From assembly GCA_963741955.1 (NCBI GenBank), contig CAVUKB010000007.1, positions 384,001 through 448,000 on the forward strand: a stretch of DNA of 64,000 bases. The letters run 5' to 3'. The notes beneath the pieces were generated by a model. The model was not told the origin of the DNA, did no database searches, and saw nothing but the letters and a program-made list of their open reading frames with translations. The translations under genes were made by a program, and so were the position numbers. This DNA comes from an uncultured Acidobacteriota bacterium. GTDB lineage: Bacteria > Acidobacteriota > Thermoanaerobaculia > Gp7-AA8. This document shows positions 5,231-41,637 of the stretch, piece after piece (positions within the stretch are counted from its first letter, which is position 1; each line of letters starts with the position of its first letter).

Positions 5231-5236
5231 GTGGCC

Positions 5237-6943: not shown

Positions 6944-7022
6944 ACAGAAGCCTGCACGCATATTCCTGCCTATCTCCCTGAATTTACAGCGGATCCTTGC
7001 CTATAGCCCCAGGGAACTTCAG

Positions 7023-10008: not shown

Positions 10009-10020
10009 AGAAACGCGCCG

Positions 10021-10203: not shown

Positions 10204-10307
10204 GTTCAACTCCTCCCTCCACCGAGTACAGCAAGACTCCGGCCGGATCCGCGCGCCCGGGGCGCGGAACGCTTCTTGCGGAAGAAAGAAGGGGAAGGAG
10301 GAAGTCG

Positions 10308-10541: not shown

Positions 10542-10719
10542 CGACGATCAGAATCTCCGGCCGAGGAGTCAGATCCAGCGAATCGCCTCGGGTGACAATC
10601 GGATGAAGCAGTACTTCAAACGCTCCCAACCGCAGGGACAGAAGCCGCCGGATTCGGACGAGGCGATCCGTCTGACCACGATTCCGAGCACGGCCGGCGA
10701 CAAACACGGCCGCAGATAG
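10531..10719 (+). CDS. Small hydrophilic hypothetical protein
   Basis: GAGGTGAGG RBS, overlaps upstream stop; 62 aa. Confidence 0.45.
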   Translation: MKNDDDQNLRPRSQIQRIASGDNRMKQYFKRSQPQGQKPPDSDEAIRLTTIPSTAGDKHGRR

Positions 10720-10821
10720 TGCACTCTTCTGCACTCTCCTTCCTTCGCTGAGAGGGCTCGGGATTCGAGCTCGAGGAGTGAGGGGCCCCGCGTCGATCCG
10801 TCCGCGCATTACAATCGCGGG

Positions 10822-26094: not shown

Positions 26095-28056
26095 ATGGGC
26101 ATGAGACGCCTTGCGGGACTCACCGCGGTCGCGGTCTGTCTGTTTTTCCTCACCGCAGCAGCATTCGCGCAACAGCTCGAGATCCGTTACATCAACGTCG
26201 GCTGGGGAGACTCGGTCTTCGTGAAGGGACCTGACGGCACCACCGTCCTCCTCGAGGCGGGGAACACGGGAATGGGTAGCGGGCGGGTCGTTCCGTATCT
26301 CGAGTCGGCCGGGATCATGCCGTCGGGCGGACTCGATTACACCATCGCAGGGCATCAGCACTGCGATCACATCGGAGGTCTCGACGAAGTGGTGCAGGCC
26401 GGCTACGACGTCCGCCGGAGAAACTACTACAACGGATCGAGCTACTCCTCGAGCTGCGCAACCGAATGGGACGCGGCTGCCGCCACCACCACGGCAGGAC
26501 CGCTGGTGGTGATGAATCCGGGCGATCAGATTCCACTCGGAAGCGGTGCACTCCTCACCTGCGTCGTCTCGAACGGGCGGGTGATCGGTGGCGGAACGGT
26601 CCCGGTGTCGAATGAGAACGACCGCTCGATCGGAGTTCTCATCCAGTACGGGGGGTTCGACTTTCTCTGGGCATCCGACCTCGGCGGCGGGAGTGATGAC
26701 GGGAGCTGCACCGGCAGGTCGACCTCTCAGGTGAACGTCGAGAGCAGTGTGATTCGGGCGATTTCTCCCGGCGGTGCTCATCCGATGATCTCGACGGGGG
26801 GAATCGACGTACTTCACGTCAACCACCACGGGAGCGAGAGCTCGACCAACGACGACTGGATGAATCTGTCCGCACCGGACGTGGCGATCATCGCGACCGG
26901 AGATGGACAGTCCGGCGGGTGGGACCTTCCGCGAATCGACGTGGTGGACCATGTGCTGCTGGCGGAAGCGTCGTGCATCAGCGCACCTCCGGCGCTCGTA
27001 CTGCAGACGGAGGAGGGAAACCCTGCCGGCAGTCTGACCAGCTACAGCGGTTACTGCGTCGGTGACGTGACCATCACCACGGACGGGATGAACCTCTACA
27101 CCATCAACGCGGATGGAAACGTCTCGGAAGGACCGGACGAGCTCTCCGCCGCAAACCTCCCGCGCAGCTTCACCATCGACGATGCACCGGGTGGTGGCGA
27201 CACGCAGGCGCCGGTCACGTCGATCACCTATCCTGCAGATGGATCGACGGTGGGCGGAACGGTCACCGTGACCGCTACTGCGACCGATGACGTCGGCGTG
27301 ACCGGAGTGGAGTTCTATCTCGACGGCGTCCTTCAGGCCACCGACACGGTGGCGCCGTACAGCTGGAGCTGGGACACGACCGGGGCGGACGGAGCACACT
27401 CGCTCCAGACGCGTGCGTATGACGCGGCGGCGAATGTCGGAAGCTCCGCGATCGTCACCGTGACGGTGAACAACGGAGGAGGCGACACACAGCCGCCGGT
27501 CACGTCGATCACCTCTCCCGCAGATGGATCGACGGTAGGCGGAACGGTCACCGTGACCGCAGCCGCGACCGATGACGTTGGTGTGACCGGGGTGGAGTTC
27601 TACCTCGACGGCGCCCTTCAGGCGACCGACACCACCGCTCCGTACGGCTGGAGCTGGGACACGGCGATGGTCGCAGACGGCAGCCATGTGCTGCAGTCCC
27701 GAGCGACCGACGCGGCGGGGAACAGCGGCAGCTCGCCGCTGGTCACCGTGACGGTGAGCAATGCGACCGCGGACACTCAGGCGCCGACTGCGCCCTCGTC
27801 GTTGTCGGCGAATGCGCGGGGAAAGGGAAAGATCGGACTCTCGTGGGGTGCGTCGACTGACGACGTCGGCGTCGCGGGTTATGAGATCTGGCGCTCGGCT
27901 GGCGGCGGCTGGAGCCGGATCGACATCTCGACCAATACCGGTTACAACGACACGAATGTCGCGGGGAAGCAGACCTACAGCTATTACGTCGTGGCATTCG
28001 ACGCAGCCGGCAATCGTTCGGCGGCTTCGAATACCGCATCTGCCACGGCCCGTTGA
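26095..28056 (+). CDS. Exported ComEC/Rec2-type metallo-beta-lactamase-fold hydrolase with two bacterial Ig-like domains and an FN3 domain
   Basis: Signal peptide; INVGWGDS, HQHCDHIGG, NDRS, HHGS; two near-identical DTQ.PVTSIT.PADGSTVGGTV...AAGN modules; WGASTDDVGVAGYEIWR. Confidence 0.88.
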   Translation: MGMRRLAGLTAVAVCLFFLTAAAFAQQLEIRYINVGWGDSVFVKGPDGTTVLLEAGNTGMGSGRVVPYLESAGIMPSGGLDYTIAGHQHCDHIGGLDEVVQAGYDVRRRNYYNGSSYSSSCATEWDAAAATTTAGPLVVMNPGDQIPLGSGALLTCVVSNGRVIGGGTVPVSNENDRSIGVLIQYGGFDFLWASDLGGGSDDGSCTGRSTSQVNVESSVIRAISPGGAHPMISTGGIDVLHVNHHGSESSTNDDWMNLSAPDVAIIATGDGQSGGWDLPRIDVVDHVLLAEASCISAPPALVLQTEEGNPAGSLTSYSGYCVGDVTITTDGMNLYTINADGNVSEGPDELSAANLPRSFTIDDAPGGGDTQAPVTSITYPADGSTVGGTVTVTATATDDVGVTGVEFYLDGVLQATDTVAPYSWSWDTTGADGAHSLQTRAYDAAANVGSSAIVTVTVNNGGGDTQPPVTSITSPADGSTVGGTVTVTAAATDDVGVTGVEFYLDGALQATDTTAPYGWSWDTAMVADGSHVLQSRATDAAGNSGSSPLVTVTVSNATADTQAPTAPSSLSANARGKGKIGLSWGASTDDVGVAGYEIWRSAGGGWSRIDISTNTGYNDTNVAGKQTYSYYVVAFDAAGNRSAASNTASATAR

Positions 28057-28197: not shown

Positions 28198-28653
28198 ATG
28201 AAAATCGTGAAAGTCGTACTGGCGCTCGTGGTGGTCTTCGTTCTGATTCAGTTCATTCGTCCCGTCCGCTCGAATCCCCCGGTCGACCAGGTGAAGAGCC
28301 ATCCTGCGAAGTTGCAGGTGCCCGCCCCCGTCGCTTCGATTCTCGCGCGCTCGTGCAACGACTGCCACTCGAGCCTCACGCACTGGCCCTGGTACAGCCG
28401 GGTGGCTCCCGTTTCGTGGCTCGTCGCACACGACGTGAGCGAAGGGAGGGGGGAGCTCTCCTTTTCGGAGTGGGGTGGTTACCCGGATCAGAAGCTCGCG
28501 AAGAAGCTCGATGCGATCTGCCGCGAGGTCAGAAGCGGCGACATGCCTCCGGCGACGTATCTCCCCATGCATCGTTCCGCTCGGTTGAGCGAAACGGATC
28601 GGACCATTCTCTGCGACTGGGCGAAAAGCGAGGCTGCGCATCTGAGGAAGTGA
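28198..28653 (+). CDS. Heme-binding (Haem_bd) monoheme cytochrome c
   Basis: N-terminal TM, CNDCH, WPWYSRVAP, distal MPP. Confidence 0.9.
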   Translation: MKIVKVVLALVVVFVLIQFIRPVRSNPPVDQVKSHPAKLQVPAPVASILARSCNDCHSSLTHWPWYSRVAPVSWLVAHDVSEGRGELSFSEWGGYPDQKLAKKLDAICREVRSGDMPPATYLPMHRSARLSETDRTILCDWAKSEAAHLRK

Positions 28654-28721: not shown

Positions 28722-30788
28722 TCAGCGGACCAGACCCCGCGGACCGAACGGCCGGAACTTCATCTCCACGTACGAGACTTCGTCGGTCTTCCGGTTCATC
28801 ACCGTCATTGACGCTCCGTGCTCGTCGATGATCCGTTGATCGATGGAAAAACCGAGTCCGGATCTTCCATCGAGATGGAGAAGGTTCGGGTCGAGGGACC
28901 AGCGAAGCTCGCGATCGGTGAAGATCAAGGCGTTCGTACTGACGGTGACGCTGGTCCATTCTTCCTTTCGCCATTCGACGGGCGCGATGACGATGTCGAC
29001 TCGCGCTCCTTCGTTCGTCCGCTCGATGAACATCTCCAGAATGTGCTTGAAGAGCCGGTGGAGGCGGAGGCGGTTCATCATCACTGCGGGATTTCCGCGG
29101 ACGATCCTGAGGCGAAGATCGATGTCGCGAATCCGGGCCGCTCCCGCCAGCTCCCGCATCGCACCTTCCACCACCATCCGGATCTCTCCCGCGCCGGGGT
29201 CGAGCTCGAAAGGACGGGCATACTCTTCGAGCTCTCGAAACAGCGTGGACATGCTGTGCACTGCAGAGCGGGCCTGACGGACTTCGGAAGGGGAGAGCTC
29301 GACCGTCTGCAGTCGTTTGCTCAGCAGATCGCCGATCAGGTTCATCGGCTCGGCGGACTCTCGCGAGAGTCCGCGGATGAGTTGAGTCACGGCGTCGAGA
29401 ACGTCCGCTTCGCGGCGGACCTGCTCGCGCTGCTCTTCGTCCGTTATGTCGCGGGCGATCAATACGATTCGTTCATCCGAGACGAAATGGCTCCCGAAGG
29501 TTCTTGCAGCGATCTGCCAGCTCGTCCCGCGGAGCGGATCACGGCAGACGGCACTCGTTCCCAGATGAGTCTCTGTGATCACGGCCGCGAGCTGGCGCAT
29601 GGTCGACCACGGCTCGCCGTGAGATGCGGAGGGCAGCTGACTCCCGGTCGCTTCTTCGAACGAGATCCCGAGTGCGCGTCGCGCGAGCTCGTTCAGCCGG
29701 AGAATCGTGGTGTTCGTGTCGATCACCACCACCATCGCTTCGAGTGTATCGCACACCATCCGCCATTCCGCCGCAGAGAGCTCGACCAGTGCTTCGAGTC
29801 CCGCACGCTCACGCTCGTCCGGATCGCTCTCCGGATTTTCGTGGATCGTGCCGATGATCTGCAGAGGTGTCGCGCCCGCACCGAAGACTCCTCGAACCGA
29901 GCTCCGAACCTCCAGAACCCTTCCCGACTCGGTGAGCACCCGATGGTCGAGCAGCCACTCGCCCGGCTCGACGAACGCCCGTTCGATCATCCGCACGAAC
30001 GCATTGCGATCTTCGGTATGCACGTGCGCAAGAAACGCCCCGTAGTCGGTGAGCGTCTGCTGCGGATCTGCATCGAGGATCCGGAAGATGGCATCCGACC
30101 ATTGCCAGACGCGATTGCCCCGACTCCAGGCCCAGCTTCCGATCCGTCCGGGCTGCGCCCGACGCTCGATCCGCGCGCGGCTCTCTGCCAGCTCGATCTG
30201 AGTCCGCTTGTTCTCGATCGCCGCGGCGAGGACGTTCGCGATCGACTTCATGAACTCGATCTCGTACGACTTGAAATGGCGCTCACTCCGGCTGTAGGCA
30301 CCGAGGATTCCGAGAGGTCCGGTACGTCCGGGGAGGACCACACTCATCCCGCTGACCACTCCGGCGGGGCCGAGGATCGGCTCTCCGCTGAACCGCGTCT
30401 CCTCGGACAGACGGTCGAATACGACCGGCTCGCTCGACTCGAACGTGAAGATCGCCTCGGAGTCGACTTCCGACTCCGATTCATGATGAGGGTAGCCGAT
30501 GATCGTTCGGGTCCCGAGGCGCTGACGATCGGGCAACCACTCGAGCATCCGGCAGATGTCGACTGCGAGCGTGTCGGCGGCGAGTGCGCACGCCTGCCCG
30601 ATCAGCAGTGAGACGTCGACGCGAGTGAGTGCTGCCTGGCCGAGCTCCGCGACCGCGGTCTGCTGCCGAGTTCGTGCGTCGAGCTCGGACTGCAGCTGCT
30701 GAAAGCGATCAGTGGTGACCACGTTCGAGCCCGCCCCCGCCCCCACTCCCATCTCCGGCGAAGCGAAACGCGCATTCGAAATATCCAT
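28722..30788 (-). CDS. GAF-PAS-PAS histidine-kinase-like protein with degenerate catalytic core
   Basis: GAF (SGMSVVLPG..LGILGAYS), PAS (IGSWAW..WSDAIFRI..VHTEDR); only the G2 box SGLGFSI is retained. Confidence 0.8.
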   Translation of the reverse strand: MDISNARFASPEMGVGAGAGSNVVTTDRFQQLQSELDARTRQQTAVAELGQAALTRVDVSLLIGQACALAADTLAVDICRMLEWLPDRQRLGTRTIIGYPHHESESEVDSEAIFTFESSEPVVFDRLSEETRFSGEPILGPAGVVSGMSVVLPGRTGPLGILGAYSRSERHFKSYEIEFMKSIANVLAAAIENKRTQIELAESRARIERRAQPGRIGSWAWSRGNRVWQWSDAIFRILDADPQQTLTDYGAFLAHVHTEDRNAFVRMIERAFVEPGEWLLDHRVLTESGRVLEVRSSVRGVFGAGATPLQIIGTIHENPESDPDERERAGLEALVELSAAEWRMVCDTLEAMVVVIDTNTTILRLNELARRALGISFEEATGSQLPSASHGEPWSTMRQLAAVITETHLGTSAVCRDPLRGTSWQIAARTFGSHFVSDERIVLIARDITDEEQREQVRREADVLDAVTQLIRGLSRESAEPMNLIGDLLSKRLQTVELSPSEVRQARSAVHSMSTLFRELEEYARPFELDPGAGEIRMVVEGAMRELAGAARIRDIDLRLRIVRGNPAVMMNRLRLHRLFKHILEMFIERTNEGARVDIVIAPVEWRKEEWTSVTVSTNALIFTDRELRWSLDPNLLHLDGRSGLGFSIDQRIIDEHGASMTVMNRKTDEVSYVEMKFRPFGPRGLVR

Positions 30789-30913
30789 GGCCAACTCCTC
30801 GTACTTCGGACCAGAACCGCTCCGGGTAATTTCACAGGCTAGCACTTAACAGCCGCATCCGTAGTCGCGACTGACGAATTTTTGACGTCCTCAGCAGTTT
30901 CCTGGGAGTCGCG

Positions 30914-31345
30914 TCAGGCGGCCCGCTTCGGGCGCTTCCTCGAGAGCTGGTGAACCGCATAGGCGGCGAGAAACGCGCCCCCCGTGATCCAGTGAAGCAC
31001 TGCCATCGAGCTCCGCAGCCATTCTGCTGTGCCGACCTGGAGAAGGTATCCGGAGAGCACCATCGGGGCGATCGACCAGAACGCCGCGAGCCCGCTCCGT
31101 CTCCTCTGTTTCAGGGGCAGCTGCCTCTTGAAAAGGATGTGATCGTGGAGGATCACTCCGAGCCCGAAGAGGAGAAGCGGTGCGAAAACCACATGGACGT
31201 CGAGCATGTACGGCTGTGCGGGATGGTTGGCCACCGCGAACGGATCGTCGGTCTTCATGAAGTACTTCATCCACGCGAACACGACCCCGGTCGCCGCGGT
31301 AACCGCGAACGTGAAGTGGAGATACCACGCCTCCAGCCGGGTCAT
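30914..31345 (-). CDS. Four-TM His-rich membrane protein, probable cytochrome b-like
   Basis: ATG 31345 overlaps upstream stop; His in or flanking helices (YLH, DVH, LHDH, LHWITGGAFLAAYAVH). Confidence 0.7.
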   Translation of the reverse strand: MTRLEAWYLHFTFAVTAATGVVFAWMKYFMKTDDPFAVANHPAQPYMLDVHVVFAPLLLFGLGVILHDHILFKRQLPLKQRRRSGLAAFWSIAPMVLSGYLLQVGTAEWLRSSMAVLHWITGGAFLAAYAVHQLSRKRPKRAA

Positions 31346-31899
31346 CGGGCTCCCTGCGACGCGGGTCGGTTTCCTTCGATGGCATGGTGAATCGCCAGGA
31401 TCTTCCGGGAGGCCCGAACGATCGCGCGACCGCTGAGACTTGCGCCGCTGATCGGCCGGATCGCCCTGTCGAGCGCAAGCTCGTCGTCGAGCGAGTGCCC
31501 GTCGAGCTGCTCGAGCCATCTCTCTTTCGGCAGATAATCCATCGGCTCGTTGAACGAGAGAATGTCCACGCGAGAGATCTTCCCGTCGGGCGTGACGAGC
31601 ACCATGATCGTCTCCGGAAGAGTCCTCACCCGGTGGGCGTCGAAATAGGCCCAGCCGATCACCTTTCCGTCCTTCACTCCGGCATAGCGAATCACGAGTT
31701 TGTCCTCGAAGTCGGAACCGCTCAGCCGCCGGGCAGTCTGGAGCTGTGCATCGGTGAGGAAGACCGTCTCACGACGGACGGTCGTACCGGGTGCGAACGC
31801 GGTGGAGAGTGCGTGCTGTTGATCCATGAAGACCCGCCCGTGAGCGACGGGCGGGGTCATCATGGCCAATACGAACGTGATTGAGATCAGGTATTTCAT
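31342..31899 (-). CDS. Exported FMN-binding domain protein
   Basis: Signal peptide MKYLISITFVLAMM; flavinylation motif ISGASLS. Confidence 0.88.
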   Translation of the reverse strand: MKYLISITFVLAMMTPPVAHGRVFMDQQHALSTAFAPGTTVRRETVFLTDAQLQTARRLSGSDFEDKLVIRYAGVKDGKVIGWAYFDAHRVRTLPETIMVLVTPDGKISRVDILSFNEPMDYLPKERWLEQLDGHSLDDELALDRAIRPISGASLSGRAIVRASRKILAIHHAIEGNRPASQGAR

Positions 31900-31916
31900 T
31901 TCGACTCTCTCCGGAA

Positions 31917-33305
31917 TCAGAAGATGTATCCGAGGGCGATGTTGAACTGATCGACGCCGCTGTTCTCCGCGTCGTCGCGGTTCTGGTAATCGACCTTGAT
32001 CACCGTCTGCGGGATCGGTTTCCATGCGACTCCGGTGGTGAGGGTGGTGACTTCGTTCTCCGGGTCGCGGACGAAGCCGGTGGGAACGCTCTTCTGGGTG
32101 TCGTAACTCTCGTAACGCACGTACGGGGTCACTGAATGAGCACCGAGAGAAAGAACGCTCGCGAGATCGAAGCCTGCTTCCGCGTACCATCCGCCGAACG
32201 TCTTTCCGATCGATTCTTCGCCGGTGAATCCGTTCGCGAGGTTCACCTGTGCGGCATCGCCGACCGATCCGGATGCCCAGAGCGCGCGGAGAGAGACGCC
32301 GCGGAGCCGCGCGCCTGCATGGAGCTCGCCGAGCGTGACCGGTGCGTCGAACGGTTCTCCCGACGGGGTCGTGCGTCCCTGAGCCGAGTTGCCCGAGTAG
32401 ATGGAGCCGCCGAATATCATCCCTTCCACGGGGCTGTAGTCGAGGCGTCCCACCAGAGCGAAGTCCTCAGCATGTGCGACCGACCCATGCTGTCGCCCTT
32501 CCCGGATTCCGTGTGCGGAGAAGTCCTCGGAATCGAGGCCGGATACGAGATATGCACGGTAGGAGATGTTGCCGGTCTCGCCGAAGAGTCCCGCTCCGAT
32601 CTCGCTCCAGGTGGTCGGAATGATCACCTGTTCCACGTCGGGGCGCTTCGCTCCGAGATACGCGGTCGGCTCGTGGAGCTCGTTGATCAGTCCGACCGGC
32701 ATGAGCATCATTCCGGCCCGGACGTTGAGTGCGGGGCGGGAGAGAAAGTCGAGATACCCGAACTCCATCTCCACCGCGCCGGCCTTCTCGGTGTTCGCGT
32801 GCTCGACTTCGAGCTCGGAATTGAAGAGAACCTTGTCGTTGAACTTGTATCCGGTGTAGAGAACCGCGCGGAGGTAATCGATCGAATCGCGGTGTGAATT
32901 CTCCTCTTCTTCTTCCTCCGCTGCGCGCAACGAATCCGTTTCCGCCTCTGCGGAGCTCGAGCTGAAGTTCTGGTACAGCATCTCGCCGTATCCTCCGAAA
33001 GAGACGCCGGGCGAGCTGCGGTAGACCTTCGACGCGGCGGCTCCGAGGCCGTGCTGTTGCGTCTCTGCTTCAGGAACCTTGCGCTCCACCTTCATCGACT
33101 CGATCTCTTCGGTCAGGATCTCGATCTGGCGCTGAATCTCTTTGATCTCCGCCGACTCCGGCTGCTGTTGCGACAGCTGCTGAATTCTGCTTTCGAGCGC
33201 TGTGATCCGAGCTTCCAGATCGTCGATCTTCTTCTGTTCCTGGGCGGCGAGAGGGAAAGCAAACAGAATTGCGAAAACAATGGTGAAGAAGAGGCCTGAC
33301 TTCAT
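31917..33305 (-). CDS. Outer-membrane porin-like beta-barrel with N-terminal coiled coil
   Basis: Signal peptide, coiled coil, FGGYGE, FNSELEVEH, PVGLINE.HEP, C-terminal ALGYIF. Confidence 0.85.
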   Translation of the reverse strand: MKSGLFFTIVFAILFAFPLAAQEQKKIDDLEARITALESRIQQLSQQQPESAEIKEIQRQIEILTEEIESMKVERKVPEAETQQHGLGAAASKVYRSSPGVSFGGYGEMLYQNFSSSSAEAETDSLRAAEEEEEENSHRDSIDYLRAVLYTGYKFNDKVLFNSELEVEHANTEKAGAVEMEFGYLDFLSRPALNVRAGMMLMPVGLINELHEPTAYLGAKRPDVEQVIIPTTWSEIGAGLFGETGNISYRAYLVSGLDSEDFSAHGIREGRQHGSVAHAEDFALVGRLDYSPVEGMIFGGSIYSGNSAQGRTTPSGEPFDAPVTLGELHAGARLRGVSLRALWASGSVGDAAQVNLANGFTGEESIGKTFGGWYAEAGFDLASVLSLGAHSVTPYVRYESYDTQKSVPTGFVRDPENEVTTLTTGVAWKPIPQTVIKVDYQNRDDAENSGVDQFNIALGYIF

Positions 33306-33315
33306 CGAATGATCC

Positions 33316-34371
33316 TCATTTCCTTTGTGATGCGATCTCTTCCAGATCGAATTGCCTGCGGAACGCGAACGTGGCCCGGATTGCGTGATTCCTGCTCGAC
33401 GGGAGGATGTAGACCGCGGCGATTCCGTGACGGTCTGCCCAATCGACTCCGTCGTCGGGACCCATGACGTAGAGAGCAGTGGAGAGGATGTCGGCGAGAA
33501 GCGGATCGTCATTGATGACCGAAACGGATCCGCGCGGCGGGAGAGCGTCACCGGTGCGTGGATCGATGATGTGGGTGAACCGCTTTCCGTCCACCTCGAA
33601 CGTCTGTTCACTGCCGGAGCTCGTCGCGATCGAGCCGTGGTCCATGCGCACGACCGCAAACGGAGCCTGGCGTGCCTCGGGATCGGCGATGGCGATCTCG
33701 ACCGGCTCATGGAATCCGAAAAGCGCGACCTGACCCCCGAAGTCGATCACCGCGTGGGGAACATTCCGAGAGCGGAGGACGTCGAGCGCCCGGCCGATTG
33801 CGTATCCCTTTCCGAAGCCTCCTTCTTCGATCACCGCGCCGCGGTGGCGCGTGATGGTCCCCTCGAGCCATCCGATCTCCACGTTCGTCGGATCGACCCT
33901 GACGAGAGCGCGACGGATTGCCTCCCGACCGGGGAAGGACCCTTCTTCGCGGGTCTTCCAGAGCCGGACCAGTGGACCGACGAGCGGGTTGAACGCCCCG
34001 CCTGTTTCGCCGGTCCAGTGAAATGCAGTCCGAAGGAGTGTGAGGAGCTCCGAGCGAACCGGAACCGGAGCATCCAGCGGAGCGCGATTGATTCGCGAGA
34101 GCTCGCTGTCGTCCCGCCAGGTCGAGAGAAACGTTTCGATCCGTGCGATCTCGTCGAAAGCAGGCTCGATGCTCTTCTCCTGGCCGGCGGGTACGGTAAT
34201 CCGGCAGATGGTCCCCATCAGGAATCTGGCGTGGGTGACGGAATCGGTGACAGGAGTCGAACCAGCTGCTCTTCCGCCACCGGACCGCTGCGGTGAGGAC
34301 GTTCCGGAGGGAGCCGCGAAGACATTGGGAGCCAGGAAGAGCAAGCAGACCGCGATCGCTATTTGAGACAA
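33316..34371 (-). CDS. apbE: FAD:protein FMN transferase
   Basis: FLMGT, DSELSRIN, GAFNPLVGPL, GGFGKGY, DFGG, IATS, HIIDPRTG, ADILSTA; start TTG 34371 (or GTG 34428). Confidence 0.93.
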   Translation of the reverse strand: MSQIAIAVCLLFLAPNVFAAPSGTSSPQRSGGGRAAGSTPVTDSVTHARFLMGTICRITVPAGQEKSIEPAFDEIARIETFLSTWRDDSELSRINRAPLDAPVPVRSELLTLLRTAFHWTGETGGAFNPLVGPLVRLWKTREEGSFPGREAIRRALVRVDPTNVEIGWLEGTITRHRGAVIEEGGFGKGYAIGRALDVLRSRNVPHAVIDFGGQVALFGFHEPVEIAIADPEARQAPFAVVRMDHGSIATSSGSEQTFEVDGKRFTHIIDPRTGDALPPRGSVSVINDDPLLADILSTALYVMGPDDGVDWADRHGIAAVYILPSSRNHAIRATFAFRRQFDLEEIASQRK

Positions 34372-34379
34372 CGTCTCAA
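34363..34379. promoter_or_regulatory. Palindromic operator, second copy
   Basis: TTGAGAC-AAC-GTCTCAA over the probable apbE start codon. Confidence 0.7.
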
Positions 34380-34424
34380 AATTACGAAAGACACGCGTTC
34401 GCCTGGATCGAGTACCGGATGAGA

Positions 34425-35090
34425 TCACTGCGGCCTGACCTCCGGGCGAACGAAGATCTCGTTCGCGATCTCTTCCTCCACCGCGATCGATGTTTCACCG
34501 CACGCAATGACGATGGAGGGACGCCGCTGCATCAGGCGGACCGTCGTTCCCGGAATGACGCCCAGCATCGCGAGCCGGTTGAGCCGCGAGCTCGAGCGCG
34601 GTGTGATGAAGACGATCTTGCCACTGCCGCCGACCGGAAGATCGTACAGACGGGTGATGAGCGGCTCGACCTTGCGGTCGAACTTCCTGCAGCAGAGTCC
34701 CTGAGGAATCGGTTTCCCATGCGGACATTTCGGAGGATGGCCGAGGAACGTGCAGACCCGGTCGACGACCCGCTCGGAGAGCATGTGCTCGAACTCGCAC
34801 GCCGAGGCTTCCGCCTCGTACATGTCGGCCTCCAGCACCTCGGTGAAGAGAATCTCGGCCAGACGGTGCCGCCGGACGATGCCGCGGGCGCGTTCTTCAC
34901 CCACGGGGAGAAGCTCGATGAGCGGATGGAGCCGTACGGCATTGGCGGCGGTCAACTCGGCCAGAGCCGCGTCGAGATTCACCTGAGCGACCTGGACCCG
35001 CAGATCCTCCGCTCTTTCCACCGGGCGGCCCGATTCGCGGAGATACCAGAGTCTTTCGAGAACTTCGTCCGTGACTGGATGTTCGATCAT
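34425..35090 (-). CDS. DtxR/IdeR-type metal-binding protein with C-terminal FeoA domain
   Basis: RRHRLAE, ACEFEH, LGHPPKCPHGKPIP; FeoA-like RLAMLGVIPGTTV; ATG 35090 overlaps upstream stop. Confidence 0.9.
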   Translation of the reverse strand: MIEHPVTDEVLERLWYLRESGRPVERAEDLRVQVAQVNLDAALAELTAANAVRLHPLIELLPVGEERARGIVRRHRLAEILFTEVLEADMYEAEASACEFEHMLSERVVDRVCTFLGHPPKCPHGKPIPQGLCCRKFDRKVEPLITRLYDLPVGGSGKIVFITPRSSSRLNRLAMLGVIPGTTVRLMQRRPSIVIACGETSIAVEEEIANEIFVRPEVRPQ

Positions 35091-35287
35091 GAGGCCTTGG
35101 CTTCCTTGCGGAGTTTCCTGAACAGGCCACGGAAGATGTCGACCACTGCGCTGTCTTCCACGAATTCGTAATTGCAGCGCGGGCACTTCACCATCCGGCA
35201 GCCGTGCGACATCGGGCAGCTGGAGTGGCAGTTCGCGCCGAAGAATTCGTTCGAGCAGAGGGGGCAGGTGTAGATCTTGTCGTCCAT
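35087..35287 (-). CDS. Small Cys-rich metal-binding protein
   Basis: CPLC, CHSSC, GC, CPRC (7 Cys in 66 aa) between feoB and DtxR-FeoA. Confidence 0.8.
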   Translation of the reverse strand: MDDKIYTCPLCSNEFFGANCHSSCPMSHGCRMVKCPRCNYEFVEDSAVVDIFRGLFRKLRKEAKAS

Positions 35288-35299
35288 CGCAGCCGGTTC

Positions 35300-37363
35300 C
35301 TACGCGAGGTTCACGTGAAGACGGGTGAGCACTTCGTACAGGATCCAGCCGATGCCGAACGCGTACGGAATGATGAATGCGGTCATGTAGAGCGCGCTTC
35401 GGACGCCGCGCTCCTTGATCATCACGAAGAAGTTCGCGATGCAGGGAATGAAGAGCGTGATCACCGAGAGTGAGACCACGGTCTGGATCGGATCGAGCTG
35501 ACCTTGCCGCTGCAGCATGAAGAGTCCGGCGGCACCGTAATCGCGACGGAGAAATCCGACCAGGAAGGCGTTCGACGCTTCGATCGGCAGGTGGAGTACT
35601 CCGACGATCAGCGGGGAGATCGCCTTCTGGAAGATCACCAGCGTTCCGGTCAGATCGGCCACGTAGAGAATGAGCGTTCCGATGACGAAGAGAGGGACCG
35701 CCTCCTTCAGATACCACTCCATCCGCGCGACGACCTTGATCAGGATGTTGCCCAGCTTCGGGCGACGGATCGGAGGCAGCTCGAGGAGAAAATCGGAGCG
35801 ATCTCCCTTGATGATCTTGGAGGAGAGAAAACCGACCAGGAAAATGGTTCCCCCGACCACCGACAACCAGACCAGAGTCGCGGTGAAATTCAAGGCGCCG
35901 AGCATGGCCATGATCACCCCGAGCTGGGCAGAACATGGAACGCCCAGAGCCAGAAGAAGAGTCACGATGACGCGTTCTTTCCTGGTCTCGAGAATTCGAG
36001 TGGTGAGCGTCGCCATGGTGTCGCAGCCGAGTCCGAGCACCATCGGAAGGACGGCCTTGCCGTTCAGTCCCATCGCGCGGAAGATCCGGTTGATCATCAC
36101 CGCGAGCCGCGGGAGATATCCCGAATCCTCCAGGATCCCGAAGAAGATGAAGAACGTACCGACCACCGGCAGCACGATGGCAATCGCATAAGTCAGAGCC
36201 ATCGTGACCACGCCGTACGGCCCGACGATCAGATCGTGAAGGAACCGGGCAACGGTATGCCAGCCGGAGACGCTCCCGGTGAGCGTGTACTGCGCGGTGA
36301 TGACTCCGTCGACGATCAGGTGATGGTGCGGAAACCGGAAGATCGCATCCAGGCCGTGAATCAGCCACGGATTCAGGAATCCGTTGAAGACGGTGTTTTC
36401 GAGAAAATCGACCAGGGTGCCGGCGCCGATCTTTCCGACGAAGAACCAGGCGAAGAAGAGGACGAGCCCGAGGAAGGGAAGGCCCCAGATGCGGTGCATG
36501 GTGATCCCGCCGAGCCATGCCCTCACGCCGCTGTTCTCCTCGGCTGCGGCGGTGAAGACTTCCTGGAGAATACGGTCGACCACGGCGAGCCGGTTCCTGC
36601 TGATCCGGTAGGCGAGCGGCTCCGCGAGACCTTTCTGCGTCTCTTCACGCACCAGGTCGAAGTAGCTCAGCGTATCCGGCGTCACCCGCTCGGAGAGGAA
36701 GTCGGTAAGGGTATCGTCGCCTGCGAGAATGGCCACCGCCACCGCACGCTTCTCTCGCCCCATCGTCTCGGGCAGGCGGTCGACGATGCGGGCGATGCCC
36801 TCCTCGAGATCGTCGTCGTAGTCGATGCGGTAGCTGGACTGTCGTGGTGAGAGTGCCTCGCGACGGAGCCGCTCGACGCCCCAGCGACGGATCGCCGAGG
36901 TCTCGATCACGGAGACGCCCAGAATCTCGGAGAGGAGCTCGATCTTCGTGGAGATGCCGCGCTCGCGTGCCTCGTCGACCATATTCAGACAGAGGGTGAA
37001 AGGGACGCCCCATTCGGCGATCTGAATGGTGAGAAGGAGTGTCCGGCGCAGGTTCTTCATGTCTCCGACGTGGATCACGTCCGCATCGGCCGCATCCAGG
37101 AGAACGTCCCGGGTGACTCTTTCGTCCTCCGACTGCGGAATCAGGGAGTTCGTTCCGGGGGTGTCGATGACCTCCCGTTGTTCCGATCCGAACGTCGCAG
37201 TGCCACGCGTGATCTCCACCGTGGTGCCGGGATAATTCGAGACGGTCACGTATTTGCCGGTGAGCGCCCCGAAGATCACGGACTTGCCGACATTGGGGTT
37301 TCCCACCAGCACCAGGCGGCGTCGTGAGGGAGCGGGCGTTTCGAGAATCGGTTCGGCGGTCAT
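35300..37363 (-). CDS. feoB: Ferrous iron transporter B
   Basis: GNPNVGKS, NYPGTTV, DTPG, NMVDE, LEDSGYLPR, GLGC, VPCSAQ, FLLELP, FIPCIA. Confidence 0.97.
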   Translation of the reverse strand: MTAEPILETPAPSRRRLVLVGNPNVGKSVIFGALTGKYVTVSNYPGTTVEITRGTATFGSEQREVIDTPGTNSLIPQSEDERVTRDVLLDAADADVIHVGDMKNLRRTLLLTIQIAEWGVPFTLCLNMVDEARERGISTKIELLSEILGVSVIETSAIRRWGVERLRREALSPRQSSYRIDYDDDLEEGIARIVDRLPETMGREKRAVAVAILAGDDTLTDFLSERVTPDTLSYFDLVREETQKGLAEPLAYRISRNRLAVVDRILQEVFTAAAEENSGVRAWLGGITMHRIWGLPFLGLVLFFAWFFVGKIGAGTLVDFLENTVFNGFLNPWLIHGLDAIFRFPHHHLIVDGVITAQYTLTGSVSGWHTVARFLHDLIVGPYGVVTMALTYAIAIVLPVVGTFFIFFGILEDSGYLPRLAVMINRIFRAMGLNGKAVLPMVLGLGCDTMATLTTRILETRKERVIVTLLLALGVPCSAQLGVIMAMLGALNFTATLVWLSVVGGTIFLVGFLSSKIIKGDRSDFLLELPPIRRPKLGNILIKVVARMEWYLKEAVPLFVIGTLILYVADLTGTLVIFQKAISPLIVGVLHLPIEASNAFLVGFLRRDYGAAGLFMLQRQGQLDPIQTVVSLSVITLFIPCIANFFVMIKERGVRSALYMTAFIIPYAFGIGWILYEVLTRLHVNLA

Positions 37364-37872
37364 TTACGAAGACTCTTTTCGTTGATCTGGATCATCTTGA
37401 CGCGGTCGGGAGAGTCGGGCTGCTCTCCTTTCTTCCGGCACGCGTCGCAAATCCCGAGGATCTGAAGGTTGAGAAACGTCGGAGTGAACTTGCGACGGGC
37501 ACAAATCTCCCGCTGCCGTTGCTGGAGCTCAGCATCGTGGAACTCGAGCACTCCTCCGCAGGCGGTGCAGACGAGGTGATCGTGATGCGAGTTCGACGAG
37601 ACGTGCTCGTAGTGGTAGTGGTCTTCTCCCAGATGCACCCGCCGCACGAGTCCGGAGCGGACCAGAAGGTCGAGCGTCCGGTAGACCGTGGCCCGGGAGA
37701 TCTTCAGGCCCTTTTCCTTCATCCGGAAGAGGAGCTCGTCCGCTTCGAAGTGGTAGTGAGCGGAAAAGATCTCCTCGATCAGCGCGGTGCGCTCGGCGGT
37801 GAGCTTCAGACCGTTCTCGGCCAGAAAGCTCTGGAACCGGGTCATTTCGCGCTTCAGTGTCGTATCCGGCAT
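37360..37872 (-). CDS. fur: Fur-family transcriptional repressor
   Basis: TAER, HFEADEL, SRATVYRTL, HHDHLVCTACG, CDAC. Confidence 0.92.
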   Translation of the reverse strand: MPDTTLKREMTRFQSFLAENGLKLTAERTALIEEIFSAHYHFEADELLFRMKEKGLKISRATVYRTLDLLVRSGLVRRVHLGEDHYHYEHVSSNSHHDHLVCTACGGVLEFHDAELQQRQREICARRKFTPTFLNLQILGICDACRKKGEQPDSPDRVKMIQINEKSLRK

Positions 37873-37890
37873 GTTCGGCGATCCCCAATG

Positions 37891-37907
37891 TTGAGACTGA
37901 GTCTCAA
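37891..37907. promoter_or_regulatory. Palindromic operator (Fur-box-like) upstream of fur
   Basis: TTGAGACT-G-AGTCTCAA, perfect inverted repeat 18 bp before the fur ATG. Confidence 0.8.
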
Positions 37908-37958
37908 TTGCTGATGGAAAGTTTATGCCCGGTCCATGGTGCTGTCAAATGACTTACG

Positions 37959-39080
37959 TCACACCCCTCGTGTGACCTGTGTGTAGAGCTCGACGTAGCG
38001 CGGGACGATCCGGTCCATCCCGAACCGCTCGATCGCGTCCGACCGGCCGGCCCGCCCCATCCGCGTCCGGAGCTCCTCATCCCGGAGAATCTCGGTTGCC
38101 CTCTCGGCCATTCCCGCCACATCGCCCACCGGGCGCAGGTACCCCGTCTCCCCTTCGGTGACCACCTCCGGAAGACCGCCGCTCCGGGTCGCGATCACCG
38201 GCACTTCCGACGCCATCGCTTCGAGTGCCGCCATCCCGAACGACTCGTGCTCGGAAGGGAGCAGCAGGAGATCGCAGCTTCCGATCACCGACTCCACCTC
38301 CGGGAACTGGCCGAGGAAGTAGACCTCGTGAATCAGACCGAGCTCACGACAGAGCGCTTCGGCCTTCGATCGCTCCGGCCCGTCTCCGACCATGATCAGG
38401 CGGCTCGGCACCTCCTCCCGTACCCGGCGGAACACTTCGATCACGTCGAGTACGCGTTTCACCGGGCGGAAGTTCGAGACGTGGCAGATCAGCTTCTTCT
38501 GGGAGTGCGCGAACATCTCGAACGGAAGGTGATTGCGGCGGAACCGTTCCGGATCGACGAAGTTCGGGATCACGTGAATCTCGTTGGAGGTGTGGAAGTC
38601 GCGGATCGTCTCGTCGCGCAGCCATCCGGAGACCGCAGTCACTGCATCCGACGATTCGATTCCGAAGCGGGTGATCGGGAGATAGCTCGCATCGCGACCG
38701 ACCAGGGTGATGTCCGTTCCATGCAGCGTGGTGACCACCTTCAGCTTCTGCTCGCCGAGAATCTGTCGCGCGAGGTGGGCGCTGATGGCGTGCGGAATGG
38801 CGTAATGGACGTGCAGAACGTCGAGCCCTTCGTACTCCGCGACTTCGGCCATCTTCGTGGCGAGTGCGAGTGTGTAGGGAGGAAAGTCGCCGAAGAGCGG
38901 ATACGGTGTCACGCTGACTTCGTGGAAGTGGAGACGCTCGTGCAGCAGATGAAGACGCGACGGAAGCGCATAGCTGATGAAGTGCACTTCGTTTCCGAGG
39001 TTTGCCAGTGCGATTCCGAGCTCGGTCGCGACGACGCCCGAGCCGCCGAACGTCGGATAGCAGGTGATCCCGATCCTCAC
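37959..39080 (-). CDS. bshA: N-acetyl-alpha-D-glucosaminyl L-malate synthase
   Basis: RIGITCYPTFGGSGVVATELG, HVHYAIPHA, TTLHGTDITLVG, HVSNFRPVKR, ESFG. Confidence 0.96.
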   Translation of the reverse strand: MRIGITCYPTFGGSGVVATELGIALANLGNEVHFISYALPSRLHLLHERLHFHEVSVTPYPLFGDFPPYTLALATKMAEVAEYEGLDVLHVHYAIPHAISAHLARQILGEQKLKVVTTLHGTDITLVGRDASYLPITRFGIESSDAVTAVSGWLRDETIRDFHTSNEIHVIPNFVDPERFRRNHLPFEMFAHSQKKLICHVSNFRPVKRVLDVIEVFRRVREEVPSRLIMVGDGPERSKAEALCRELGLIHEVYFLGQFPEVESVIGSCDLLLLPSEHESFGMAALEAMASEVPVIATRSGGLPEVVTEGETGYLRPVGDVAGMAERATEILRDEELRTRMGRAGRSDAIERFGMDRIVPRYVELYTQVTRGV

Positions 39081-39805
39081 GAGAGCTCCCGGCCGCGATA
39101 CGCTGCGATGACGTCGTCGATCCGCGGTGGCTGCTTGGTCACGAATGCCTCGCCGAGCTTCGCGCCGGCGAGCGTTCCGAAGTGCCGCGCCCGTGCCTCG
39201 ATCATGTCGATGAACGACCTCTGCGAGATCCAGGTCTCGGGCTCGTTCGAGGCGGGATTGTAGAACTGCGATCTGAACGCGGCGAGCGCCTCCATCTTCT
39301 TCGGAAATGCCGCCGTCACGTCGACTACGAACGTCGGATGCTGGATGTAATTCTGCGGGTAGTAGATCACCACCTGCGGCCGATGGGGCGCCTGACCCGT
39401 ATCGATCTTCGCGAGGCCCGAATAGAACCAGGCGTCCGTGACCAGCTGTCCGGTGCGGCCGTGATCGGGATGCCGATCGTCGGGCCACGGCGCGTAGATC
39501 ACCGCGGGCCGTCTGGAGCGGAGGATCCGGATGATCTCGATCTCCTCCTCCCGTCCGTGCCGGAGATTGCCGTCGCCGAAATCGAGGGTCTCGCGGAATG
39601 ATGCGCCGAGAATCGCTGCCGACTCGAGCGACTCCTCGCGCCGCTGTTCCGGAGTTCCTCGGGTTCCCATCTCCGCCCGGGTCAGGTCGACGATTCCGAC
39701 TTTCGACCCGCGCCCGACCATGGTCACGATGGTTCCCCCGCAGCCGATCTCGACGTCGTCGGCGTGGGCGCCGAAGAAAATCATGTCGACGTTTTCGGTT
39801 GTCAT
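39077..39805 (-). CDS. bshB1: Bacillithiol biosynthesis deacetylase
   Basis: GAHADDVEIGCGGT, DLTRAEMGTRGT, DRHPDH, SQFY. Confidence 0.93.
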   Translation of the reverse strand: MTTENVDMIFFGAHADDVEIGCGGTIVTMVGRGSKVGIVDLTRAEMGTRGTPEQRREESLESAAILGASFRETLDFGDGNLRHGREEEIEIIRILRSRRPAVIYAPWPDDRHPDHGRTGQLVTDAWFYSGLAKIDTGQAPHRPQVVIYYPQNYIQHPTFVVDVTAAFPKKMEALAAFRSQFYNPASNEPETWISQRSFIDMIEARARHFGTLAGAKLGEAFVTKQPPRIDDVIAAYRGRELS

Positions 39806-39870
39806 GTCACCTCGCCAGGATCTGTGCTCTGCCCGAACGGGCAACGGGGAGAGTACCACCGGGGAGGGGC

Positions 39871-40006
39871 GAGGATCGAGGATCTGAAAGGCATCGAGGA
39901 TCGAGGATCTGAAAGACATCGAGGATCGAGGATTGAGGATCGAGGATCTGAAAGACATCGAGGATTGAGGATCGAGGATTGAGGAACGAGGGTCGAGGGG
40001 GAGGAC
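39871..40006. repeat. GAGGATC heptamer tandem tract with three TGAAAG(A/G)CATC spacers
   Basis: Directly visible between bshB1 and bshC. Confidence 0.95.
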
Positions 40007-40071
40007 GTCACCATCCCGGCTCCGGATCGGACGTAAAGGAGGCTTCCGGTTGCTCGAGCCCGGGCGAAGGA

Positions 40072-41637
40072 TCACAACCCGATCACCGTCACCCGATCCG
40101 AATCGGCGGCAGCGACCGCGCGCATGCGCCGCACCAGCTCGGAGCCGAAGCGGTCCCACCACGTGATCCAGGCCGCGACGCGATCCTGCGGCTGCCCGAG
40201 TGGATTGAGAGCTCCGGTGATTTTCTGAATGGCGCGGAGCCGCTCGACGTCGCGTCTGCCGAGCGCACGTTCGCCCCGTTCCCCGAGCCTTTGGAGTTGA
40301 TAGCGGATCTTCCGCAGCGATCGGGTGACGGGCCGGTCGAGGGAGCCATCGGAACGGCGGACGGCATCCGCTAGCGGCTCGAGCTCGGCGAGAAAAGCAC
40401 GTCGCGCCCTCTCGATCGATACCTCGAGCTCCCGCCGCGCCGGCTCTTCCCGGCGTGCGAGGATCGAATCGACAGGATCGAAGACCTCACTCATGCCGAG
40501 CCCCCAGCGGTCGATCTTCCGCAGAATCTTCGACGACGCGAGGAGGACGTGTCCCCGGAGCGCGACCGCCGGACGAGGGATCTCGCATATTTCGTGGATC
40601 ACCGACGACTGCGCGTAATAGGAGACTTCGGCCGGGCCTCCGACGAAGAGCTGCGGGTGAAGAACGAGATCCTGCAGAGCTGGGCGGGTGAGGGCGGAGG
40701 TGGAGACGGACTCCGGAGCGTCGTGAATGATGGCGAGGAGCTCCTCGGCGGAGCTCTTTCTTCCCGCCAGAGTCCAGACCTGACCCTTTTTCGCGATGGG
40801 GAGCCGGACGCCCTCGCGCGTGAGATAGAGGAGCGTGTAGGTTCCGTCTTCGTCCGCCACGATCTGCGGCGGGTACCCCGCGGATTCGATCGCGGCGCGA
40901 CGCTCTCTCAGACCTTCCTGGACGGCATCCCACTCCCGGACGATCTTTTCGAACAGAGGAGCGCCGGCGCGGCGGAGCTCGGGAAGGAGAGCGTCCACCA
41001 GCACGACCTCTCCCGGCACCACCGAGGCGATCAGGCGTGCGAACGAATCGCGAAAGCTGATCCCCGGACGGAGGAACTCGCCGTCGATTCCGCTCCGCTC
41101 GATGAACGCGCGCCGGAGTGATTCCGGGAGTGCGATCTCTCCGACCATCCGGCGGGTGAGCGGTCGCTCGGCTGCGCGGAGCGTCACCGCGCCGTCCTGT
41201 GAATCGATGGTGATCGTCGCCACCTCGTCGTAGTCGTGGTCTTCCGTCGCGAGCCAGAAGAAGATGGTGCTCTCCACTCCCTTCGCCGCGAGCTCGTCCT
41301 TCGCGTGAAGAAGCGAGGCGATCTTGGCCAGGGTGTAGAGCGGCCCTCCCGCGAATCCGGTCTGCTGTCCCGCGATCAGCGCGACGCTGCGCCCTTCGGC
41401 CCATCGATCCAGCGAGCCACCGACGTCGTTTCCCCATCCGCGATTCTGCTCGTTCAGAGCGGCAACGAGCGCGGAGTCGCGAACGACATCTGCCGGTGAG
41501 AGTGCGCCATCCGGAGGGGTGACGAAACGCGTCGCTGCAGGAGCCCGACGCACCAGATCGAGAGCGAACCGGCTGATCCCCGGGTACTCGCCGAGGGCAA
41601 AGCTGCGACAGTCGGCAGGCGTTTCCGTCGAGGTCAT
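40072..41637 (-). CDS. bshC: Bacillithiol cysteine-adding enzyme
   Basis: AGQQTGFAGGPLYTLAK, FWLATEDHDYDE, LTRP..QD, GGPAEVSYYAQ, PQDR. Confidence 0.93.
   Translation of the reverse strand: MTSTETPADCRSFALGEYPGISRFALDLVRRAPAATRFVTPPDGALSPADVVRDSALVAALNEQNRGWGNDVGGSLDRWAEGRSVALIAGQQTGFAGGPLYTLAKIASLLHAKDELAAKGVESTIFFWLATEDHDYDEVATITIDSQDGAVTLRAAERPLTRRMVGEIALPESLRRAFIERSGIDGEFLRPGISFRDSFARLIASVVPGEVVLVDALLPELRRAGAPLFEKIVREWDAVQEGLRERRAAIESAGYPPQIVADEDGTYTLLYLTREGVRLPIAKKGQVWTLAGRKSSAEELLAIIHDAPESVSTSALTRPALQDLVLHPQLFVGGPAEVSYYAQSSVIHEICEIPRPAVALRGHVLLASSKILRKIDRWGLGMSEVFDPVDSILARREEPARRELEVSIERARRAFLAELEPLADAVRRSDGSLDRPVTRSLRKIRYQLQRLGERGERALGRRDVERLRAIQKITGALNPLGQPQDRVAAWITWWDRFGSELVRRMRAVAAADSDRVTVIGL

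Follow-up and report, generated by a model that had tools for sequence, protein, structure and literature searches.

The window analysed here, a stretch of 64,000 nucleotides from an uncultured Acidobacteriota bacterium (Thermoanaerobaculia; Gp7-AA8; positions 384,001 to 448,000 of contig CAVUKB010000007.1, assembly GCA_963741955.1), carries on its minus strand a compact cluster of eight genes between positions 30914 and 37907. Read in the direction of the genes, these encode a Fur-family metalloregulator, the Fe(II) permease FeoB, a small Cys-rich protein, a DtxR/IdeR-type protein, the flavin transferase ApbE, an outer-membrane porin, a periplasmic protein predicted to bind flavin mononucleotide (FMN) and an inner-membrane protein with four transmembrane helices (4TM). 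On balance, we favour reading the cluster as an iron-regulated module for iron acquisition that spans the cell envelope and consists of two joined units. A first-pass annotation of this DNA had described the same eight co-oriented genes as a single combination of iron uptake, porin, flavinylation and cytochrome functions. The strand, the position and every gene assignment are borne out by Pfam, NCBIfam, profile comparisons and structure models, but the unit that is conserved among relatives is not the set of eight genes: it is a four-gene core, apbE-porin-FMN-4TM, onto which different iron permeases are docked. The core probably supplies reduced iron for uptake by these permeases.

Species-representative genomes hold 211 relatives of the 4TM gene, and the core emerges from a comparison of the best 80, each taken with at most 10 kb of flank per side. 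These loci stem from Acidobacteriota (mainly Thermoanaerobaculia), Planctomycetota and Gemmatimonadota. Gene presence was scored with a tblastn panel (E ≤ 1e-5, same strand, −9 to +4 kb); greedy calling of the longest open reading frames (ORFs) gave many antisense ORFs in this GC-rich DNA and was dropped in favour of the panel. The FMN gene is found in 78 of the 80 loci, apbE in 67, the porin gene in 66 and all four genes in 60, with contig ends accounting for many of those that are missing. Among the 55 four-gene loci that retain at least 2.5 kb of upstream sequence, and which we call assessable, Fur is present in 28, the iron permease FTR1 in 23, FeoB in 6, any iron permease in 29 and any iron gene in 31. 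Together with a palindrome described below (44 of the 55), these counts uphold the proposed tie between the apbE half of the cluster and iron. The survey of the families was less kind to the eight genes as a conserved entity: FTR1 is the usual partner, the linkage to Feo is a minority state found in six loci, whether these are counted among the 80 or among the assessable 55, and the full set in the order of the window recurs only in locus L001 and, approximately, in L046, so that this order was rejected as the typical state.

The permease position ahead of the core is filled in several ways. Twenty loci have the arrangement Fur-FTR1-core (FTR1 by Pfam, 2.6e-30), in which the matches to fur, FTR1 and apbE lie far less than 100 nt apart. 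Five loci carry Fur, an FTR1 fused to a Cys-rich domain, two FtsX genes and an ABC gene in front of the core, an arrangement that we take to resemble the cFtr1-P19 cluster of Campylobacter. In a locus of this Fur-FTR1-ABC variant, L065, the FTR1 with its C-terminal Cys-rich domain is 432 aa long (2522-3820), and the C-terminal tail of the ABC ATPase (5889-6938) matches the metal-binding domain of DtxR (residues 58-134 of the DtxR-like protein of the window). FeoB follows Fur in L001, L046, L025, L037 and L038, and L068 reads DtxR-porin-apbE-FMN-4TM-FeoA-FeoB. Fur adjoins the core without a permease in L076 and likewise in L080, which lacks apbE, and the core stands alone in all Planctomycetota loci as well as in others. 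A further sub-lineage has a gene for a family-3 solute-binding protein followed by FMN-4TM-apbE, mostly without a porin gene, L024 and L041 being the exceptions. In six loci with this family-3 solute-binding protein ahead of FMN-4TM-apbE (L015, L016, L018, L026, L028 and L030; in L016, for example, at 4837-11543), both porin and palindrome are missing, and the neighbouring genes encode a fusion protein of the NifU/IscA type and an enzyme of the radical SAM family.

A tree of the porins indicates how the window came by its present arrangement. This tree (62 rows, three porin ORFs of aberrant length having been excluded) places the window and L001 inside a set of 22 rows together with 19 Fur-FTR1 loci, with a support of 98 in the Shimodaira-Hasegawa-like approximate likelihood-ratio test. 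Because the window porin nests within the Fur-FTR1 clade, feoB, the Cys-rich ORF and the dtxR-like gene appear to have taken the place of FTR1 in the lineage of the window. The FeoB label changes four times on the tree, at least three of these changes being forced; by this reconstruction the linkage to FeoB arose at least three times, and the permease slot seems to have been refilled repeatedly.

The link between the core and iron is strengthened by a 17-bp palindrome, TTGAGAC-N3-GTCTCAA, which the first-pass annotation had missed and whose end coincides with the end coordinate given there, 37907, 35 nt past the start codon of fur. The copy before fur (TTGAGACTGAGTCTCAA, 37891..37907) is an exact match to the 7-3-7 layout, reads TTGAGAC-TGA-GTCTCAA and lies 19-35 nt upstream of the fur ATG. 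It stands downstream of the −10 hexamer of a sigma-70-like promoter (TTGACA-17-TAAACT, 37920..37948, minus strand) in the 86-bp gap between a bshA-like GT4 gene and fur; that promoter counts for little when taken alone, with one such site found in 30500-38300 against 1.1 expected from shuffles. The second of the two exact copies in the 64-kb window (TTGAGACAACGTCTCAA, 34363..34379) lies at the junction of dtxR and apbE, and L001 has the palindrome at the same junction. A third site in the window with two mismatches (TGGAGACCGAGTCCCAA, 17098-17114), inside an ORF of 676 aa, was set aside as a chance occurrence, since shuffles give 2.3 such sites.

The distribution of the palindrome over the 80 loci (1.22 Mb) is strict. 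There are 48 sites with at most two mismatches, all of them just upstream of fur (30) or apbE (18) and nowhere else in the 1.22 Mb. Its 10-base core is matched 51 times, in each case no more than 450 nt ahead of fur or apbE, and 44 of the 55 assessable loci have such a match; about one match in 1.2 Mb is expected by chance, as estimated from base counts. Since the palindrome precedes fur where fur leads and otherwise apbE, the simplest reading is that it most likely serves as the operator for autoregulation by the adjacent Fur-family protein. The Irr ICE element of Bradyrhizobium, TTTAGAA-N3-TTCTAAA, is bound by a Fur-family protein (PMC1698941). It has the same 7-3-7 layout as the window palindrome and TT-AGA/TCT-AA in common with it, with two of the seven half-site positions differing. 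The regulator beside the window palindrome fits the Fur and PerR models far better than those of Irr, which reach 37.6-39 bits against 80.6 bits for the best model.

The second copy of the palindrome bears on how the eight genes are transcribed. The genes are tightly packed, with overlaps of 4 bp between fur and feoB, the Cys-rich ORF and dtxR, dtxR and apbE (given the GTG start at 34428), and the FMN and 4TM genes, and with gaps of 12 bp between feoB and the Cys-rich ORF, 10 bp between apbE and the porin gene and 17 bp between the porin and FMN genes. A single simple operon, as had been claimed, sits poorly with an operator copy at the dtxR/apbE junction, which suggests two joined regulatory units. 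One may go further and suppose that fur-feoB-Cys-dtxR and apbE-porin-FMN-4TM are transcribed separately and abut by chance, a view that would explain why the junction of both the window and L001 holds an exact copy and why the core alone stands behind its own palindrome in 18 loci. We regard this as unlikely, though it is the most serious of the alternatives. The stop codon of dtxR overlaps the GTG, which has GGAGG 10 nt ahead of it, and with this start the palindrome, 49 nt downstream of the GTG, is intragenic to apbE. In L001 the stretch from the palindrome to the lipobox Cys of apbE is free of canonical start codons, and therefore that gene, too, seems to begin upstream of the site. The junction shows neither a promoter-like site nor a terminator in our scans, and the same operator would control both units in any case. 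The palindrome at the junction could work as a roadblock or be left over from the event that joined the two units.

The inner-membrane component of the core, the 4TM protein (30914..31345, minus strand, 143 aa), belongs to a large family without annotation. It has no Pfam or NCBIfam match above the cut-off, none of its 81 close homologues is informatively named (two bear the generic label DUF202), and the family profile gathers 1,391 clusters at 50% identity (E ≤ 0.001). Its AlphaFold2 model (pLDDT, the per-residue confidence, 91.9) has four helices. Five of its seven His residues are invariant in 25 relatives: 51 and 69 on helix 2, 118 and 132 on helix 4, and 41 in the first outer loop. Judged by eye from the charges of the loops, both termini are cytoplasmic and the His pairs lie near the outer and the inner face of the membrane. 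Sub-threshold matches to Ni_hydr_CYTB (cytochrome b561) occur in nine of the 25 relatives and to DUF4405 in seven; the window protein itself scores 11.8 bits with DUF4405 (PF14358; cut-off 26.7) and does not reach the cut-off of PF01292. Structural neighbours in the ESM Atlas include clusters with b561 and DUF4405 (TM scores 0.76 and 0.74). Cytochrome b chains listed by Foldseek reached TM scores of 0.46-0.59 only and were discarded as unusable evidence. The histidine pattern and the weak family resemblance support the earlier suggestion of a cytochrome b-like protein, and we consider it a candidate di-haem cytochrome of the b type. The structure prediction that had been proposed as a check thus gave the four helices with invariant His on helices 2 and 4, but no significant match in the PDB.

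A complex of this protein with its putative redox partner had also been proposed as a check. One prediction was made, from the alignment of the 4TM family and residues 22-185 of the FMN protein, with two haems and FMN. It scored 0.52 against 0.01 for the best control, the runs agree in at least 97% of the contacts, and the pLDDT of the partner is at least 88. In a calibration that is itself rough, given our own alignments and riding ligands, 116 of 157 solved complexes and two of 215 mismatched pairs attained the pass mark. At scores of 0.60 or less, however, the mark was met by just 18 of the 157 solved complexes and by both of the passing mismatches. The predicted contact between the two proteins is thus weakly supported, in a range that it shares with mismatched pairs.

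Two further proteins of the core are concerned with flavin. ApbE (33316..34428, minus strand, 370 aa from GTG 34428), the FAD:protein FMN transferase, matches PF02424 over residues 71-339 with 224.4 bits (cut-off 25.6); by eye it has an N-terminal hydrophobic segment, its start codon being uncertain, and the ApbE of L001 has a lipobox. The FMN protein (31342..31899, minus strand, 185 aa) has a signal peptide, again by eye, and a profile of 36 sequences of its family matches RnfG (9eri_G, E 2.3e-6) with the TGA[ST] flavinylation site of the latter aligned to its own motif. This motif, SGAS, had been pointed out before and stands at residues 151-154 (ISGAS), with Ser154 as the predicted site of flavinylation; G-A-[ST] is kept in 36 of 36 relatives and Ser or Thr at position 151 in 30. 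Although the profile match and the aligned site liken it to RnfG and NqrC, the protein differs from them in being secreted and stand-alone, in having no Rnf or Nqr partners, in its Arg for the Asp of the motif and in five invariant residues of its own. The latter (D87, H89, R92, E118 and W128) are shared by all 36 relatives; they are not part of the flavinylation motif and could form a site for a metal or a substrate.

The porin (31917..33305, minus strand, 462 aa) has no Pfam or NCBIfam match, with Porin_O_P (PF07396) absent at E ≤ 1; this domain is found in 11 of 34 relatives, at best with 9.4e-8. Its profile met only coiled-coil noise among the PDB sequences (best E 0.058). In the AlphaFold2 model, which was built from 34 sequences and has a pLDDT of 87.8, a signal peptide is followed by a coiled coil (approximately residues 20-76) and an outer-membrane barrel of 16 strands; the C-terminus, ...GYIF, ends in an aromatic residue. 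Foldseek returned 301 PDB matches to the model at E ≤ 0.001, with OmpM1, OmpU and OmpC (about 1e-11) and OprP (8.5e-10) at the top. Four residues, N162, E164, E166 and E168, are invariant and alternate with hydrophobic ones on the strand 159-171, and a further invariant segment, NELHEP (208-213), lies in the long loop after strand 5. By this alternation the side chains of the four residues should line the lumen of the barrel, and we infer an acidic, cation-selective channel. As to the porin entry envisaged earlier, the invariant acidic stripe points to cations and away from ferric chelates. In its 16 strands and its Foldseek matches the porin resembles OprP, OprO and the general porins, whereas its N-terminal coiled coil sets it apart from them; where OprP has an arginine ladder (so the title of PDB entry 2o4v), the window porin has a stripe of glutamates. 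A member of the 4TM family, P0232, is fused to, or has been merged with, an outer-membrane barrel domain of the Phenol_MetA_deg family, which hints at a different outer-membrane channel paired with the 4TM gene in other lineages.

The unit that precedes the core in the window is regulatory and transport-related. The Fur-family protein (37360..37872, minus strand, 170 aa) matches PF01475 with 110 bits (cut-off 23.1). FeoB (35300..37363, minus strand, 687 aa), with its N-terminal GTPase, scores 368.7 bits with TIGR00437 (cut-off 315.65) and shows the Pfam domains FeoB_N, FeoB_Cyto, Gate and FeoB_C. The Cys-rich ORF (35087..35287, minus strand, 66 aa) has seven Cys, including two CxxC pairs; it matches nothing in Pfam or NCBIfam, its 14 homologues are all nameless, and L001 and L046 have it in the same place, flanked by feoB and the DtxR-like gene. 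Its product is likely a cytoplasmic protein of the zinc-ribbon kind. The DtxR/IdeR-type gene (34425..35090, minus strand, 221 aa) encodes Fe_dep_repr_C (89 bits) and FeoA (53.6 bits) domains according to Pfam, and residues 11-187 align to the DtxR-family chain 7b25_A (E 8.5e-15), with low per-residue confidence over residues 11-60; in its N-terminal domain Pfam finds no helix-turn-helix (PF01325, E ≤ 0.01). What had been called a DtxR-FeoA protein is by these alignments a three-domain homologue of DtxR/IdeR, whose SH3-like domain scores as FeoA.

These elements can be assembled into a path for iron. The porin would pass an iron species, probably a cation, across the outer membrane. In the 4TM protein, two b-type haems would be held between the paired His residues and pass electrons of the quinol pool on to the periplasmic side of the membrane, while ApbE would attach FMN covalently to Ser154 of the RnfG-like protein. 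The latter may then provide the permease in the inner membrane with ferrous iron, by reducing Fe(III) or by keeping the iron reduced, and FeoB in the window, or FTR1 in most relatives, would import it. The fur-feoB-Cys-dtxR unit would contribute a regulator, the inner-membrane permease and two accessory or regulatory proteins, and the palindrome shared by both units would allow the whole set to be derepressed together when iron is limiting.

Several observations weigh against this reading. Some concern regulation: NCBIfam scores fail to separate Fur (80.6 and 78.8 bits) from PerR (77.2 bits), no equivalog cut-off being reached, and the adjacent Fur-family protein is a putative binder of the palindrome. 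The limits of the operon are faintly marked, too, with no sigma-70-like site ahead of apbE and seven terminator candidates (4.5 expected), all intragenic and none past the 4TM gene; a search of 30000-38500 with Rfam (E ≤ 1) gave no matches. Others concern the redox proteins. The spacing of His51 and His69 is 18 residues, while classical cytochrome b has 14. No PDB entry matches the 4TM model in Foldseek at E ≤ 0.001 (best 0.46) or the profile of the family at E ≤ 10. The FMN protein scores 21.1 bits with FMN_bind (PF04205), just under the cut-off of 22. The Asp of the motif is found in none of its 36 relatives and is Arg in 24; the motif is given as D-x-x-[ST]-G-A-[ST] (PMC12052999), and the change of the Asp to Ala is described there as having minor effects only. 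The synteny, finally, is less weighty than its counts, as the 20 Fur-FTR1 loci are close relatives and amount to few independent observations. FTR1 systems elsewhere are usually tied to the oxidation of Fe(II), not to reduction. The core has neither Fur nor DtxR nor an iron permease beside it in 24 of the assessable 55, and these include all loci of Planctomycetota.

The last of these points leads to the view that the core is a periplasmic redox system induced by iron limitation which takes no part in transport, the proximity of feoB or FTR1 reflecting shared regulation. It could stand in, with flavin, for an electron carrier rich in iron, or be a reductase for protection or repair in the style of MsrPQ. 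In line with this view, many of the 24 loci, including loci of Planctomycetota, still have the palindrome, and flavinylation has been suggested to be perhaps advantageous where iron is poor (PMC8238504, in its available text). The view does not explain, however, why two unrelated iron permeases were, taken together, recruited to this position on at least four occasions, nor why 66 of the 80 loci have a dedicated porin, which implies that a substrate is imported. We hold it to be improbable.

Less probable still is a flow of electrons in the opposite direction, in which the FMN and 4TM proteins would take electrons from periplasmic Fe(II) for an oxidase-permease of the FTR1 type, comparable to FtrABCD or EfeUOB, and the core of the window would be a leftover beside feoB. 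FTR1 is indeed the commonest partner (23 of the 55), the cluster of the window descends from the Fur-FTR1 clade, and the five loci with the FTR1 fusion and the FtsX/ABC genes fit the idea. FeoB, on the other hand, takes Fe(II), so that a partner which oxidises it would work against uptake in the seven FeoB clusters; FMN bound to protein has a low potential and oxidises Fe(II) poorly; and no cupredoxin or P19 is found inside the clusters, though no model of P19 was run.

Equally doubtful is the idea that the 4TM protein is not a cytochrome at all, and instead a membrane partner of ApbE, as its anchor or as an exporter of flavin adenine dinucleotide (FAD), with the electrons of the FMN protein coming from elsewhere: 4TM-ApbE fusions make up at least ten of the best 150 representatives of the family, the 4TM model is without a significant structural match, and there is, to our knowledge, no agreed route for FAD to the ApbE of the Gram-negative periplasm, but four invariant His paired on two helices at two levels of the membrane are the signature of bis-His haem ligation, the relatives weakly resemble cytochrome b561 and DUF4405, and the fusions follow the 4TM-apbE order of one sub-lineage and may just reflect adjacency. 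The fusions do appear to tie the two genes functionally. They comprise P0106, P0134, P0148, P0190, P0196, P0200, P0214, P0234, P0238 and P0198, with three more from a word-based search (P0096-P0098); in all, the 4TM part is N-terminal and ApbE C-terminal, and the linker of 30-75 residues could hold a fifth helix. Apparent fusions of the FMN and 4TM proteins (P0104 and P0235) were set aside: in them a periplasmic domain runs directly into a helix whose start is cytoplasmic, which is topologically odd, a one-base error could fuse the two genes across their 4-bp overlap, and P0104 lacks the flavinylation segment.

The reading of the cluster as an iron-acquisition module has precedents. Méheust et al. 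(PMC8238504) described ApbE and FMN-binding proteins together with membrane components of the PepSY-like, MsrQ-like, DsbD or NQR/RNF-like kinds and with VIT1 or P19/FTR1; flavinylation genes near iron transporters were read there as assimilatory iron reduction, some of the clusters being Fur-regulated. The core shares with these clusters, as described in the available text, the combination of ApbE, an extracytosolic FMN substrate, a membrane electron conduit and an iron permease. It differs in that the membrane component is a 143-aa four-helix family without a Pfam model, in its dedicated porin, a word that does not occur in the main text of PMC8238504, and in its FeoB partner, Feo being confined to the reference list of that paper. 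Compared with the P19/FTR1 system of the same paper, the window has FeoB and no FTR1. As for P19, for which no model was run, the spacing between fur, FTR1 and apbE in the relatives leaves no room for it.

Small cytochromes next to apbE have been described as well. DUF4405 and FezC proteins have four conserved central His, bind haem b when purified, and have been proposed to act in iron redox chemistry (PMC11334425). In the available text of that paper DUF4405 is six-transmembrane, whereas the 4TM protein has four helices, and the taxa treated are Proteobacteria and Firmicutes, whereas the present loci belong to other phyla. In Geobacter, feoB-1 adjoins fur (PMC2700814), which agrees with the fur-feoB part of an arrangement named by the first-pass annotation; the passage in question mentions neither the small ORF nor ideR of that arrangement, and no apbE core is reported alongside it, unlike in the window.

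The flavin-based extracellular electron transfer (EET) of Listeria (FmnB, PplA, EetA/B and Ndh2) reportedly relies on an ApbE-type enzyme that flavinylates an extracytosolic protein, from which electrons go on to ferric iron. This is a respiratory system of a Gram-positive bacterium; it has neither a porin nor an iron permease and uses another membrane component, whereas the core would be assimilatory.

The first-pass annotation knew of no characterisation of the full combination. Its claim stands in so far as no matching paper was found: judged by title and abstract, none joins ApbE and FeoB on this topic, and a search on FTR1, FMN-binding, ApbE, porin and iron uptake listed, beyond PMC8238504, a bifidobacterial paper on iron limitation, without the word 'porin'. 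The general idea, however, is already in print, as flavinylation-linked iron assimilation has been proposed from genomics (PMC8238504; PMC11334425, each in its available text). New are the four-helix family, the dedicated porin, the partnership with FeoB, the putative operator and the swapping of permeases.

The cluster is flanked by unrelated genes. Upstream, on the same strand, lie bshC and a GT4 glycosyltransferase gene taken as bshA; downstream lies a GAF-PAS sensor gene. The former belong to a group on the minus strand (37959-41637) made up of bshC (Rossmann-like_BshC, 3.2e-46), the GT4 glycosyltransferase gene and, between them, an ORF that by eye is a deacetylase like LmbE/BshB; this is probably an operon for bacillithiol biosynthesis. 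On the opposite strand, about 2.3 kb downstream of the cluster, a 151-aa Haem_bd protein (PF14376, 6.6e-43) is encoded at 28198-28653, and a secreted protein of 653 aa at 26095-28056 (plus strand), with an N-terminal part like metallo-beta-lactamases and two Ig-like Big_7 repeats, appears to be unrelated.

Taken at its widest, the finding would be that the core is an unrecognised, self-contained module for reductive iron entry which spans both membranes and occurs in three phyla, comprising a dedicated, cation-selective porin with a glutamate ladder and a new, minimal four-helix family of di-haem cytochromes under a new 7-3-7 operator of the Fur family, and which has been docked repeatedly onto FeoB, FTR1 and FTR1-ABC. 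We put this forward as a tentative possibility, less probable than the narrower reading of the cluster given above. If it is true, the glutamate ladder of the porin would be the charge-reversed counterpart of the arginine ladder of OprP. How Fe(II) is supplied to FeoB or FTR1 independently of TonB, and what reduces Fe(III) in the periplasm, are poorly understood in Gram-negative bacteria. The core offers a candidate set of four genes for both: an outer-membrane channel, a membrane electron conduit, a periplasmic flavoprotein and the enzyme that matures it. With the sharply defined putative operator, in turn, one could chart the iron regulon of phyla that are abundant in soils and sediments and mostly uncultured.

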